From a virus (Duplodnaviria > Heunggongvirae > Uroviricota > Caudoviricetes), in IMG/VR virus record IMGVR_UViG_2690316152_000015, positions 1 through 22,932 of that record: a stretch of 22,932 nt of DNA. One strand, 5' to 3'. Both the position numbers and the translations under genes were made by a program. A model generated the notes under the pieces. That model ran no database searches. It was given only the letters and a program-made list of their open reading frames with translations, and was not told the DNA's origin. This document shows, piece after piece, positions 8,166-11,909 of the stretch (the first letter of the stretch is position 1; each line of letters opens with the position of its first letter).

Positions 8166-8999
8166 TCAATACTCCCCGAAGTCGATCCGGTCAGTCTTAG
8201 CTACTGCGCCAATTTCGCTAGGTGTCGGTTTCTCATTAGTGGAATATACCTTGATCCATTCAGAGCGACCGTTTTCCTGAATATTTCGGACGCGTAAACG
8301 TGGTGCGCCAGAAGTATTACAGGTTAATTGCCATGCGCCATGCTCATTAGCTTGAAGGTGAATTAATGATGTGTCGGCTGAATATGGATTACCGCTAGCA
8401 GTTCCCTTGTAAGTTACGAAACGGTTTCCGGCTAAAGCATCACTATCAATCGGACCCGTGAATGGATTTACACCAGCACCCAAACCAAAATCACCCTGAC
8501 GTAAGATCCGGCCTTCGGTAGCAATACCCCTTGCCAGAATCCCGCCATCTGGTTCAAGTTTAAATTCCAGTGTTACAGCTTTGTTATCACTACCACGGGT
8601 TTTGTGTGATGTGACGTAAGCATCATAGATGACATAGTAACCAGTGTTAGCAGCACTATAGCCAGAGTTCACAACATAGAACATACGGAAGCGTAAAGGT
8701 GTTTTATCCTCTACCGCTTTCATCAACATTGCTTGATGTTCATCGTCAAGAACACGGTTTAACGTGAGTGTTGTCGGTTCCAGTCTACGATAACCAGCAA
8801 GTTTCCCCGTAGCGTCCTGATCGTACTCTTCCAGAGTTTCTATCTCTGTGGATTCGGTTAGCGTAGGGAATGCTGCGACGTTCTCAATAGAACTAAAACT
8901 AGGATCGAAAAAGTCCGGCTGGCTATCGACCATAGTAGAAACGGAGACTTCAACATGCGACCCCGTAAAAATATCTAAGTTATCATGCGTAATATTCAT
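8166..8999 (-). CDS. Tail-tube-like protein with about 120-aa C-terminal extension domain (second tube paralog)
   Basis: 277-aa ORF with AAGGGG Shine-Dalgarno; N-terminal 150 aa alignable to the 157-aa tube protein; C-terminus carries the EKPTPSEIGA motif also found twice in the fiber. Confidence 0.5.
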   Translation of the reverse strand: MNITHDNLDIFTGSHVEVSVSTMVDSQPDFFDPSFSSIENVAAFPTLTESTEIETLEEYDQDATGKLAGYRRLEPTTLTLNRVLDDEHQAMLMKAVEDKTPLRFRMFYVVNSGYSAANTGYYVIYDAYVTSHKTRGSDNKAVTLEFKLEPDGGILARGIATEGRILRQGDFGLGAGVNPFTGPIDSDALAGNRFVTYKGTASGNPYSADTSLIHLQANEHGAWQLTCNTSGAPRLRVRNIQENGRSEWIKVYSTNEKPTPSEIGAVAKTDRIDFGEY

Positions 9000-9008
9000 T
9001 ATTACCCC

Positions 9009-9410
9009 TTAAAAACGCGCTAGATAAGAAAATTTAAGGCTAAGTGTCCCAACGATACCCCCATCACTAGAATCATCGTCATAATCGGTATTAGAAGCTA
9101 CTGGAGTGATATCTGAAATAGAGAAGCCCAAATCTTTAAAACGTGGGTTATCCGGCTGAATCTGGATTATCTGGCAAATACCCTCATGAATTTTGGTTTC
9201 ATGAATCTGAGAATATAATTGCATTTCGATAACGCATTCAGCTTGCATTGCATTACCGCCACGAACACGCGTATAAGTTTCATTCATGCCAGTAATCCAA
9301 CAAACCACGTCATCACTAAAGCCTTGCTGAGTTTGTTCTACGTTTAAAGCCAGACCTAAATCTTGTTCGATAATATCTTGCAAGGCGCGTTTGATTTTCA
9401 GTCTCGGCAT
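9009..9410 (-). CDS. Head-tail connector or neck protein
   Basis: Track ORF 9009-9479; likely start is the ATG at 9410 (MPRLKIKRAL...), 4 nt after the upstream stop, avoiding a 65-nt out-of-frame overlap; call by position between capsid and tail genes. Confidence 0.45.
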   Translation of the reverse strand: MPRLKIKRALQDIIEQDLGLALNVEQTQQGFSDDVVCWITGMNETYTRVRGGNAMQAECVIEMQLYSQIHETKIHEGICQIIQIQPDNPRFKDLGFSISDITPVASNTDYDDDSSDGGIVGTLSLKFSYLARF

Positions 9411-9414
9411 ATTA

Positions 9415-9705
9415 TTAACGGTAGCGAGCATGTGTACCCCCTGCCAGAGTAATAAAGCAATCAGTGGTATTATCACCATTGCGCTTAATATATTGAACTT
9501 TGAAACGCTGGTTTTCTACTGTGACAATATCACCTTGCTTTAAGTCTCCCTCACGACAGAATAGAAATTCTGTTTCTGTCATTACCCCTTGTTCGTCGGT
9601 AGTAGTAATTTCATGATAAGCACGAATTGATTTACCACCTTCCACCGAAAATACAGGAGCACTCTTAAACATTCTTGATAATTGTGATTCTGATAATTTG
9701 AACAT
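9415..9705 (-). CDS. Head-tail adaptor or head completion protein
   Basis: 96-aa ORF with strong Shine-Dalgarno (AAAGGGGG), first gene after the capsid gene; call by synteny. Confidence 0.45.
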   Translation of the reverse strand: MFKLSESQLSRMFKSAPVFSVEGGKSIRAYHEITTTDEQGVMTETEFLFCREGDLKQGDIVTVENQRFKVQYIKRNGDNTTDCFITLAGGTHARYR

Positions 9706-9732: not shown

Positions 9733-9763
9733 TACAAAAAAGCCCCACCGTTAGGCAGGGCTA
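9733..9763 (-). terminator. Intrinsic terminator after the capsid gene
   Basis: Minus-strand hairpin AGCCCUGCC-UAACG-GUGGGGCU followed by U6; near-identical to 3903-3933. Confidence 0.6.
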
Positions 9764-9767
9764 ATTA

Positions 9768-9896
9768 TTATTCTTTAGTTTTACGTTGTTTTTTAACTGT
9801 GGCTTTCGCCTTAACCGTCTGGGATTCTTCTTCCGGTTCAGGAATCAGATTTTCTTCCCCCAAATCGGGGGAAGGTTCAGATGGTTCTACAGGAGT
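9768..9896 (-). other. In-frame 42-codon extension ORF after the TGA stop of the capsid gene (candidate read-through extension)
   Basis: Frame open from TGA at 9897-9899 to TAA at 9768-9770; encodes TPVEPSEPSPDLGEENLIPEPEEESQTVKAKATVKKQRKTKE; contains an internal hairpin UUCCCCC-GAUUU-GGGGGAA; homologous to 3938-4063. Confidence 0.4.
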
Positions 9897-11909
9897 TCAT
9901 TCAGCGCCAATCTGGAGAACTTTCAGAGCTTCCGGCTGTGCTACAACGTAGTCCAAATCCAGCCATACACGAGGCACGATCGCGGACTGCGCACGGTAGG
10001 TTGAATCGTCCAGATCTAGCTCAAGACCTCCCCATTCCCCAACGATAATACCGGAGAAGTCACCCAGAACGATGTGACCAGCCGGGATAACGCCAGAAGT
10101 AACTACTTCATAACCAGCAATTTTGCCGTTTTCCATAATGAAGCCTTGAGCATCACCACGATCAGATTTCGGAGTAGATTCCAGTTCAGCAGCAGTTGCA
10201 CCACTCATAGCGAACTTGATAGCCTGAGCAGGAACGCCAGCGTCGGTCAATGCGGCAATCTCTTTCAGCAGGTCTTTATAGCTGAAAGCGGTTTTCTTAG
10301 TCACGCGACCACCGTCTACCAGTTGTTTAACCAGACCAGCCGGACCACGAGCATTTTCTTTATCAGACAGAATCAGTTGTTCCAGTTTGATGCGAACAGC
10401 TTTGTTAATGTGATCAGTGATCAGGGTAGCGATATTAGGAACAGTTTTCAGAGATTGACGGCTGATCGGGTTGCCACCAGCAAAAGTTTTCGGAGCCATT
10501 TTCACGTTTGCAAATTCAGCTTTGCTTTCCGGTGCAGCACCGTTTTCATCAACGAAGCCGAAAGCGTCAACGCTGGAAGCGGTCATTTTCGGAACAGCGA
10601 TCGGGCTATTCAGACCAGACAGAACGGTCACACCCAGACGACCCAGACACGAAGCAGGAAGCAGCATTTCGATGTAGGATTCAGTCAGCAGTTTTTCATC
10701 AGTAACAGCAGTCAGAGTAGCTTTGGTGTTACCTTCGGAAGCAGCACGCATAGCAGCAGCCGGAACGAATACAGAGCCACCACGAGCAGCACGACCACGC
10801 TGCATAGTTGCAGTAGCAGCCATTGCGGAATATTCAGCTTCATGAGCGCCCAGAGCAGCACCATCTACCAGAGAGCGAATTACGTTGTTCAGGTCAAAAG
10901 TTTTTTCCATGATGGATTCCTTATTAATTTGTTGTTCGTTATTACGTTGAGCATTGGTAATGTTATTTAGTGCCTTAGTGCGGAATGCTTCCGGCGTCAT
11001 GTCTTTAATTGCCAATGCGCGTTTTAATTCTTCGTCGTCAATATTTAGTTCGCGTGCAATTTCGCGAATTTCTAATTCGTCTTCTTCGGAACGTTCAGCC
11101 ACTTCCTCGGTTTTTTCTTCTTCAACCGGAGCAGCTTCACGTTCTTCTTTTATTTCTTCTTCCCGAACAGTTGAACTATCATCATCAACACTTTCAGGAT
11201 GTTTAGCGTCTTTTCCGTCTTCGAGATTTTCATCTTCTTTATTCTCTTCAACTTGGCGCTCTTGAGTTTCTTCAACTTCCGGTTCTTTAATTTCTTCTAC
11301 CGGAGTTTCTTCAACCGGAGCGGCTTCTTGTTCTTCTTTAATTTCTTCGATTTGTTCTTTAGTCATATCGCGTTTAGCCTCCAAATTAACTGTGATAGTA
11401 TTTAGAGAGCGATTCAGACCGACCGAATCATCAGCCGGGACCGTGACCCACGAAATTTCGTGTGGAATCCATTTAGAAACAATGAGTTGCGATTTGGCGT
11501 AGTCGATGTGATACTCTTTAATGTCATAGCCGACAGAAATTTTTTCCATCGTACCTTCAATGACTTTGTTACGAATATCATTAGCCATAGTCCCATGCTT
11601 GGAGAATTTAACCAGAGCACGACCTACGTTATCCGCATCGATTCGAGCGTTACAAACGACACCAATGTGATTATCGAAATTGTGATTGAACAGCAACGGA
11701 GCGTTATTATTCAGACGAGACAGATCAACCGCTTCCGGTGTATGTACCAGAATTTCATCTAATACCACCATTTCTTGATTTTGCTCATCCCAGAATTGGC
11801 GCTGATAAGGCTGTTCACTGGAGAAAGCAATTTCAAACTCGTATTGATCGTTATGCCCTTCGTTAATAACTCCACCGTAACCGTTAAGATCGCGGCGAAA
11901 TTTAAGCAT
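9897..11909 (-). CDS. Fused prohead protease, acidic scaffold-like linker and HK97-fold major capsid protein
   Basis: 670-aa ORF; N-terminal 180 aa resemble HK97-family prohead protease (HEISWVTVPADD); middle about 150 aa highly acidic with internal duplication (EEIKEEQEAAPVEE and EEIKEEREAAPVEEE); C-terminal 330 aa resemble HK97-family capsid; Shine-Dalgarno AAAGGTG. Confidence 0.8.
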   Translation of the reverse strand: MLKFRRDLNGYGGVINEGHNDQYEFEIAFSSEQPYQRQFWDEQNQEMVVLDEILVHTPEAVDLSRLNNNAPLLFNHNFDNHIGVVCNARIDADNVGRALVKFSKHGTMANDIRNKVIEGTMEKISVGYDIKEYHIDYAKSQLIVSKWIPHEISWVTVPADDSVGLNRSLNTITVNLEAKRDMTKEQIEEIKEEQEAAPVEETPVEEIKEPEVEETQERQVEENKEDENLEDGKDAKHPESVDDDSSTVREEEIKEEREAAPVEEEKTEEVAERSEEDELEIREIARELNIDDEELKRALAIKDMTPEAFRTKALNNITNAQRNNEQQINKESIMEKTFDLNNVIRSLVDGAALGAHEAEYSAMAATATMQRGRAARGGSVFVPAAAMRAASEGNTKATLTAVTDEKLLTESYIEMLLPASCLGRLGVTVLSGLNSPIAVPKMTASSVDAFGFVDENGAAPESKAEFANVKMAPKTFAGGNPISRQSLKTVPNIATLITDHINKAVRIKLEQLILSDKENARGPAGLVKQLVDGGRVTKKTAFSYKDLLKEIAALTDAGVPAQAIKFAMSGATAAELESTPKSDRGDAQGFIMENGKIAGYEVVTSGVIPAGHIVLGDFSGIIVGEWGGLELDLDDSTYRAQSAIVPRVWLDLDYVVAQPEALKVLQIGAE

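Follow-up and report, generated by a model that had tools for sequence, protein, structure and literature searches.

The textbook case of stop-codon read-through in a bacterial virus is the RNA phage Qβ; tailed phages are known to extend their capsid and tail proteins by frameshifting. To our knowledge, bacteria and their DNA phages very rarely have stop-codon read-through that is both natural and selected. Here we describe a candidate in a window of 22,932 nucleotides (nt), by which we mean the whole stretch of DNA analyzed, namely positions 1 to 22,932 of the IMG/VR record IMGVR_UViG_2690316152_000015. The window is an Escherichia coli prophage in which the major capsid gene and the tail tube gene both end in a TGA codon, followed in the same frame by a short open extension and then by an intrinsic terminator. 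An earlier note on this DNA had proposed that read-through of the two codons gives minor, C-terminally extended forms of both proteins. Comparison with related prophages supports this interpretation in that the frame is kept, the stop is TGA-A throughout, the terminator is replaceable, and the junction UGA ACU is the one used by Qβ. From these sequences, programmed UGA read-through making minor tailed isoforms of both proteins is the best reading of the locus, with a probability that we put at about 0.7.

In Qβ, the protein A1 is a minor C-terminally extended isoform, produced by read-through, that co-assembles into the capsid (PMC6971447). Several features are alike in the two systems. Qβ infects the same host species and its major capsid gene ends in a leaky UGA with the identical UGA ACU: in the record NC_001890 the coat gene ends UAC UGA ACU GCA, and A1 is annotated as read-through of a leaky stop. 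However, Qβ is a single-stranded RNA levivirus with a folded extension of 196 amino acids (aa) that is essential for infection, whereas here a temperate tailed double-stranded DNA phage would carry extensions of 25-45 residues, predicted to be disordered, on two structural proteins, and at least the tube can do without its extension. Homology is lacking between the proteins of the two phages (the capsid protein of the window is of the HK97 type, PF05065), and the resemblance is in mechanism only.

Among tailed phages, extended minor forms of the capsid protein made by recoding at the end of the gene are known from T7 (10A/10B), from Lactobacillus phage A2, and from the Listeria phages A118, A500, and PSA (PMC5009743). 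The Listeria phages also extend their major tail protein, which gives a paired head-and-tail arrangement (PMC5009743). All these systems use a -1 or +1 frameshift at slippery or rare-codon sites, whereas here the extension lies in frame 0 behind the stop and no shift site is needed. A frameshift counterpart of the Listeria and T7 type may be represented by relatives in Proteus and Edwardsiella, discussed below, whose tails lie in the -1 frame. Phage SPP1 produces a normal and an extended tube protein from one gene (gp17.1 and gp17.1*), both are found in the tube, and the extension is non-essential and was proposed to be an adhesion aid (PMC6316719). It differs from the present case by its +1 frameshift at CCC UAA, its 87-aa folded FN3-like domain, and its ratio of about 3:1; here we predict read-through, a short unstructured tail, and a much lower ratio. 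The high-copy structural genes of SPP1 all use UAA, which its authors discuss in light of the leakiness of UGA in Bacillus subtilis (PMC6316719). We observe the opposite, since the two most abundant virion proteins end in UGA. Finally, the core of the tube protein matches the tube domain of λ gpV, and the extension leaves the fold at the position of the gpV accessory domain, but in λ a folded Ig-like domain is fused to every subunit and here none is folded. Accessory, dispensable appendages on head and tail proteins are a common theme of tailed phages (PMC5009743). We found no description in the literature of read-through extensions on the capsid or tube proteins of tailed phages, and this use of stop-codon read-through appears to be undescribed for tailed DNA phages.

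Two modules behind the capsid and tube genes

All genes relevant to the two modules lie on the minus strand. The capsid gene (9897..11909, -) encodes 670 aa, according to the list of open reading frames (ORFs) and its translation. By Pfam, its product combines a prohead protease (Peptidase_S78, PF04586), an acidic scaffold-like linker, and an HK97-type major capsid protein (PF05065), and in the PDB it matches the major capsid protein 8gta (E=6e-25). The gene ends GCT GAA TGA ACT CCT, with the TGA at 9899-9897, and gene-end comparison together with the match to Qβ designates UGA ACU at 9894..9899 (-) as the candidate leaky stop. Translation confirms the arrangement reported in the earlier note, namely a TGA in the context GAA-TGA-ACT, 42 open codons after it, and a TAA 5 nt before a terminator. 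The predicted read-through extension, TPVEPSEPSPDLGEENLIPEPEEESQTVKAKATVKKQRKTKE, covers 9771..9896 (-) in frame 0 and consists of an acidic Pro-rich spacer with a net charge of -9 and a basic tail (last 14 aa) of +6. A tandem TAA TAA (9765..9770, -) closes it, and the stem of the intrinsic terminator (9735..9762, -; a 9-bp stem at 9762-9741, then a T-run) starts 5 nt past the first TAA. The range 9733-9899, first given as that of the extension and terminator module, thus covers the extension but takes in the terminator as well.

The homologous module announced behind the tail tube gene (4064..4537, -; 157 aa) is also found. The tube protein has a λ gpV-like tube domain: the Pfam families Phage_TTP_11 and Phage_TTP_12 (lambda-like TTP families) fall slightly under the cut-off, and the core of its AlphaFold model, with a predicted local distance difference test (pLDDT) of 82-91, matches the λ gpV tube structures 7t4f, 8k36, and 7t2e with a probability of 1.0. 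The gene ends GCC GGA TGA ACT AAC, with the TGA at 4066-4064 and the candidate leaky stop UGA ACU at 4061..4066 (-). The predicted extension of 41 codons, TNEELPLPEPEPQPEHEAVVIPEVEEVTAKATAKRGRKAKD, was obtained by translation in frame 0 (3941..4063, -); its acidic Pro-rich spacer has a net charge of -9 and its basic tail +5. It is followed by a TAA (3938..3940, -) and by an intrinsic terminator (3903..3933, -) with a 10-bp stem at 3933-3909 and a T-run. A weak paralogue of the tube protein, with 26-31% identity by tblastn in related loci and no Pfam match, is encoded between the head-completion genes and the fibre gene (8166-8999, -; 277 aa). This ordinary gene likewise ends in TGA, while TAA ends 11 of the 15 genes of the window.

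The two modules have in common, by pairwise alignment, the junction ATGAACT, a 14-nt core GGCGAAAGCCACAG, and the terminator. The core, which encodes AKAT, lies at 9797..9810 (-) in the capsid module and at 3967..3980 (-) in the tube module, and these two matches compare with 0.16 expected in the window. The copies had been said to differ by one 6-nt indel, but the alignment has several, with gaps of 9 and 12 nt within the extensions and a net difference of 3 nt. In mononucleotide shuffles, frame 0 is open in 8.5% of the cases for the capsid and in 13.4% for the tube, or about 1 in 90 jointly, and the initial estimate of 1 in several hundred was too strong. Hence, the window alone is weak evidence, because its open frames are only mildly unlikely by chance; it is the comparison with related sequences that makes the case strong.

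Stop, frame, and charge in related prophages

Of 5,426 complete E. coli genomes, about 55 have homologous capsid and tube regions, in every case on the chromosome, as do about 30 IMG/VR contigs with lengths of roughly 35 kb. Candidates for intact relatives are E. coli 266917_2 (NZ_CP026723, 243-260 kb), with the capsid module, and the strains PI7 and 24AR0357, with both modules. Syntenic prophages also occur in Salmonella, Providencia, Proteus, Edwardsiella, and Hafniaceae, and the INPHARED collection of cultured phages has no close relative. The counts given here concern every distinct gene end of the capsid and tube orthologues collected. The set with an extension comprises 63 such ends, 38 of capsid and 25 of tube genes, from prophages of Escherichia, Salmonella, and Providencia.

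The presence of an extension and the identity of the stop go together. All 38 capsid ends and all 25 tube ends with an extension have TGA followed by A. Conversely, TAA is used in 28 of the 30 homologous ends that lack an extension, that is, in 22/22 of the tube genes and in 6 of the 8 capsid genes, the other two (Proteus and Edwardsiella) having TGA-T. The G-to-A change from TGA to TAA, the preferred stop of this phage, was never seen in an extension-bearing end, so that a candidate leaky stop in a weak context has been kept against synonymous stop replacement. The codon before the stop varies (GAA, GAG, GAC, GAT, or GCG in the capsid; GGA, GCT, TCT, or GGT in the tube), and in the extension-bearing sequences third positions vary in 50 of the last 50 codons of the capsid and in 46 of 50 of the tube. 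Both modules of the window have the junction UGA ACU, for which the alternative in other variants is UGA AAU. Three further true modules in gut metagenomes all have TGA (3/3).

The reading frame of the extension is equally constant. The earlier note had suggested checking whether it stays open in homologous phages, and it does so in all 63 distinct ends, across three genera, none of which has a frameshift, an internal stop, or a replacement of the TGA by TAA or TAG. This holds at very different lengths: capsid extensions have 25, 27, 28, 33, 42, 43, 44, or 45 codons and tube extensions 36, 39, or 41, and at every length the homologous basic tail and its stop are in frame 0. The indels inside the extension are all multiples of three. 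Just past the second stop, the terminator loop, the T-run, and the spacer often have indels of 1-2 nt. More precisely, the spacer past that stop measures 61, 62, 63, 64, 65, or 69 nt, or else 47-49 nt, with all three phases represented and the 61-69-nt lengths spread equally over them. Every variant has 1-7 stops in the other two forward frames (+1 and +2). Even where the core is mutated the frame is intact, as in Providencia and in the prophage locus L105, whose core is also short of 3 nt (TEKSTKK instead of TAKATAKK).

What the extension encodes varies within a fixed design. All 39 distinct peptides have an acidic head with a net charge of -3 to -9 and 13-26% Pro, and a basic end with +4 to +6 in the last 14 residues. 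The basic end has been replaced several times by other basic sequences (KKQRKTKE, KKERKTKAK, KKVGRPPKAK, KRGRKPKE, KRGRKAKD/N, KRSRKAKD, and KRRKSK). In the AlphaFold model of the tube read-through product, the extension (residues 159-198) has a pLDDT below 50 and no secondary structure. Pfam gave no domain on the extensions beyond an AT-hook match under the cut-off, and neither an Ig-like nor an FN3 β-sandwich was found. The AT-hook (PF02178) matches only the ...KKVGRPPKAK variant (E = 0.088; 13.2 bits against a cut-off of 17.4 bits), and no other variant, the two extensions of the window included. A fixed charge polarity and an unstructured model are together the behavior expected of a selected disordered tail.

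The extension is not the passenger of one terminator cassette, since terminators have been swapped and divergent capsids carry it. For example, E. coli prophages whose capsids are only 38% identical to that of the window over the C-terminal 330 residues (L106 and L107) have TGA ACT CCT and an extension of the same kind. In Salmonella serovar Berkeley (L123), TGA AAT AAC... is followed by the in-frame extension NNEELPEEIPVATAKATKRGRKPKA and then by an unrelated terminator. The same is true of Providencia sp. JUb39 (L122), with TGA ACT AAC... and the extension TNEELPEEEPLPVATEKSTKRRKSK. The 28-codon capsid variant starts with NNEELP and the tube extension with TNEELP, a likeness that indicates exchange between the capsid and tube positions. 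A scan of viral contigs for the core and terminator gave at most 2 copies per contig, always behind the capsid and tube genes. In the genome contigs, a scan with the peptide pattern found no relatives, and one with the junction motif found 8 matches in unrelated taxa, which we judged to be chance. A DNA motif for N/T-N-E-E-L-P-E-D/E also occurs in marine and environmental metagenome contigs (L141, L143, L155, and L159), within long unrelated ORFs (NNEELPEDVSKYLQYKKETGRG...); we take these matches as coincidental. As a whole, the comparison of gene ends shows selection on the frame, on the identity and context of the stop, and on charge polarity.

Could the extension be translated by itself, or the UGA be decoded by special means? 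That the extension is a small gene by itself, on one strand or the other, or that its decoding involves a special tRNA or selenocysteine insertion, we hold to be extremely improbable. Antisense frames are open in many variants, and the window has ORFs at 9786..10004 (+) and 3951..4223 (+), but the lengths of the antisense ORFs scatter from 0 to 103 aa. On the sense strand, the claim that the extensions have no start codon of their own is borne out by the lack of an in-frame ATG in any of the 39 peptide variants; the positions of GTG and TTG are unconserved, and two variants have neither. Concerning special decoding, E. coli, the host, uses the standard code, and the ordinary gene 8166..8999 has TGA as its stop too. 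No tRNA with the anticodon UCA was found in the window or in 17 related loci, and no selenocysteine insertion sequence (SECIS) or other Rfam family matched the module, in which the sequence past the UGA varies and forms no common hairpin.

The second stop lies 5-8 nt upstream of the terminator hairpin in all variants, those with foreign terminators included. This suggests another possibility, that translation matters and the peptide does not: ribosomes reading through would mask the 5' arm of the hairpin and thereby tune termination or mRNA decay downstream of the two most highly expressed late genes. In its favor, both modules are also at terminators within an operon. However, the genes that lack an extension place their ordinary TAA equally near the hairpin, so that no extension is needed for this, and the few percent of ribosomes involved could affect only a few percent of the transcripts. 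The acidic-then-basic design and the range of 25-45 codons would remain unexplained as well. We thus see ribosome masking as very unlikely.

Contrary evidence and relatives without an in-frame extension

Several observations weigh against selected read-through. The sequences are related to one another, and the counts given above overstate the number of independent observations. The variable sites of the extensions distribute over the three codon positions as 11/14/13 and 11/9/14. As third positions are not enriched, there is no classic signature of purifying selection on residue identity. The protein-coding constraint that the earlier note inferred holds for the frame, the charge polarity, and the stop context, but residue identity is only weakly constrained. 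A core, ACGGCGAAAGCCACAGC, is nearly invariant across modules even at synonymous sites, for which an RNA- or DNA-level role or gene conversion could be responsible. Many tube lineages of the same prophage family have no extension, and the tube extension must thus be dispensable for the assembly of the tube. Finally, in Proteus (L116:5450-5700) and Edwardsiella (L112:3670-3930) the basic tail and the capsid gene are in different frames.

The conservation of the core raises the possibility that the module is a conserved element of the 3' untranslated region, at the RNA or DNA level (a stabilizing structure, a processing site, a small RNA, or a protein site), that has spread with the terminator and whose frame is open by virtue of a purine-rich composition. 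The core GGCGAAAGCCACAG is nearly invariant at synonymous positions, in both modules and in Salmonella, and could fold into a GGC-GAAA-GCC tetraloop hairpin. A second and strong hairpin of 8 bp lies inside the capsid extension (9854..9874, -; UUCCCCC-GAUUU-GGGGGAA; z = -3.9 for a 140-nt region), where it encodes PSPDLGEE. Such an element would also account for the lack of third-position bias and agrees with the 8-13% of shuffles that are open. However, the stem of the capsid hairpin, invariant in the variants of 33 and 42-45 codons, is absent from those of 25-28 codons and from the tube variants, and no Rfam family was matched. The hairpin begins about 26 nt past the UGA, which is probably too distant for it to act at the ribosome entrance. 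An untranslated element does not explain why the phase is held across 12 lengths while the adjoining spacer drifts in all phases, why the frame survives mutations of the core in Providencia and L105 (with its 3-nt deletion), or why the extension persists when terminators are swapped between genera. It also leaves unexplained the invariant TGA-A and the perfect link between TGA and extension. For these reasons we regard it as an improbable explanation of the module, even though a role of the core in RNA or DNA may exist besides its translation.

The relatives without an extension suggest where the basic tail comes from. Their capsids end in short basic tails that are directly fused (...KVEASKAK, ...KKTAVKAK, ...AEARSK, ...ETRVKK, and ...AGAEAKSKD), and so do their tube proteins (...SARK, ...GSRK, and ...VIPEAVAAKEK). 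These ends mark a basic C-terminus as an old, ancestral feature of both subunits in the family, to which the lineages with read-through would have added an acidic spacer while making the tail sub-stoichiometric. In Hafniaceae metagenome contigs, the segment preceding the final AKSKD has a sense/stop polymorphism, GAA versus TAA: one contig reads GGT GTA TAA GCT AAA TCT AAA GAT TAA (L118:5650-5700) and another GGT GCC GAA GCT AAA TCT AAA GAT TAA (L119:5290-5320).

The exception in Proteus and Edwardsiella concerns capsid genes that end in TGA TAT or TGA TAC, behind which frame 0 closes after 9-10 codons. The tails, VKKAKKAKAE* and VKSGRKPKTDN*, are in the -1 frame, which alone stays open between a point about 10 codons ahead of the TGA and the stop before the terminator. 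An 'A AAG' is found 3-4 codons ahead of the TGA, and no canonical slippery heptamer (X XXY YYZ) was found in these capsid ends. The arrangement may represent either decay or a tail accessed by frameshift. Loss of the frame behind a retained terminator had been named beforehand as evidence against read-through. It is what we find in Proteus, which retains the terminator of the E. coli L106 type; Edwardsiella has the same arrangement of frames but a different terminator. Both have the stop context TGA-T and do not bear on the TGA-A lineages. The exception amounts to two distant lineages; the scan of viral contigs returned only the Edwardsiella contig itself, and a search for homologous proteins gave no match.

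These cases bring up the explanation that the extension is a relic, in which an ancestral and normal C-terminal tail was cut off by a nonsense mutation and has been kept by recent descent and gene conversion, any read-through being incidental. Relatives with fused basic ends and the polymorphism of Hafniaceae before AKSKD are what one would expect of it, as are the many tube lineages without a tail, the out-of-frame tails of Proteus and Edwardsiella, and the damage by an insertion sequence (IS) in the prophage of the window. Yet the TGA is old, being common to two genes, three genera, and capsids that are 38% identical. With the flanking synonymous sites saturated and the spacer next door gathering indels of 1-2 nt, none of the 63 sequences (0/63) has been frameshifted, internally stopped, or given a TAA or TAG. 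Moreover, the different sequences that took the place of tail segments are basic in their turn. We consider a relic quite unlikely, and selected read-through remains our preferred reading of the TGA-A lineages.

Other features of the window were examined. An IS3-family element lies at 1-890 (+), with an ALIL frameshift pseudoknot (RF01497) at 1-72 and an ORF at 1..888. The neighboring gene 891..2642 (-), which is tape-measure-like, ends in 'TGA ACT' and was considered as a third module, but its end lies directly against the IS3-family element, and comparison with homologues shows the gene to be truncated: it encodes 583 aa, and the homologues in related prophages 744-845 aa. This TGA ACT stop is created by the IS insertion, and the truncation probably makes this copy of the prophage defective. 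ARAGORN called a 91-nt 'tRNA-Gln' at 9154-9244 (+), antisense to the gene 9009..9479 (-); the call becomes Glu or Lys at the homologous place in other loci, and we take it for a near-certain false positive. Among E. coli prophages, the stretch that separates the capsid gene from the tube gene is highly mosaic, and fibre genes differ. Its contents include a GIY-YIG nuclease gene (L105:11030-12274), three copies of IS903B (L003:5477-13771), and an IS3 element (L002:13094-14241).

Predicted tailed isoforms and their meaning

In the read-through model, the capsid and tube messages both close with UGA ACU, which in E. coli is a weak context for termination. There, most ribosomes would terminate via release factor 2 (RF2) and yield the normal protein. 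A minority would accept the near-cognate Trp-tRNA(Trp) at the UGA, at a frequency of a few percent should the site act as the identical one in Qβ does, translate 41-42 further codons, and halt at the UAA just before the terminator hairpin. The product would be a minor isoform with a flexible, probably disordered C-terminal appendage, made of an acidic Pro-rich spacer of about 25 residues and then of about 14 residues that form a polycationic tail (...TAKATAKK/R-x-R-K-x-K). With Trp at the stop, the predicted junction peptides are ...IGAE-W-TPVEPSEPSPDLGEENLIPEPEEESQTVK for the capsid and ...FTAG-W-TNEELPLPEPEPQPEHEAVVIPEVEEVTAK for the tube. The tailed isoforms would co-assemble with normal subunits, which would put some 10-20 tails on the head and some 10 on the tail tube of each virion. 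We infer the read-through itself, its level, the incorporation into virions, and the function from comparing sequences.

A naturally fused tube protein was also considered (P0047, 198 aa; ENA metagenome contig L111:41-637). Its DNA has the TGA, and the fusion is an artefact of gene calling with code 4, in which TGA is Trp. The entry is, by accident, a database record of the predicted tube read-through product, with Trp at the stop.

The accessory domain of λ gpV decorates the outside of the λ tube. The tube tail described here leaves the fold where gpV continues into that Ig-like domain, and for this reason our guess at a function is surface display. Provided that the isoforms exist, a few flexible cationic tails may give weak electrostatic adhesion to polyanions such as lipopolysaccharide, capsule, mucus, or DNA, a proposal that we make only tentatively. 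A broader and more doubtful idea is that one lineage of Enterobacterales prophages displays a polycationic tail on the head and on the tube, with a copy number set by the decoding route. The tail would be fused to every subunit in Salmonella and in Hafniaceae; Escherichia, Salmonella, and Providencia would have it behind a leaky UGA of the Qβ type, and in Proteus and Edwardsiella a -1 frameshift may give access to it. Trp-tRNA(Trp) and RF2 compete for the UGA in E. coli, and the read-through to which this leads varies with temperature and cyclic AMP (PMC10570021). If the idea is true, the number of tails per virion in the read-through lineages would follow the physiology of the host in these respects, and the virions would be phenotypically heterogeneous, with tunable stickiness.

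The modules also point to a blind spot of annotation, as the stretch of about 125 nt that follows the capsid or tube gene, up to the gene after it, is unannotated in every RefSeq record examined. If confirmed, the reading proposed here would establish a conserved read-through site in E. coli double-stranded DNA prophages that uses the UGA ACU signal of Qβ. It would provide a compact natural cassette, composed of a leaky stop, a spacer, a tail, and a terminator, for low-valency display on heads and tails. It would also mean that selection can favor a short, disordered, and charged tail, and not just a folded Ig-like domain, as a low-copy decoration of the virion.

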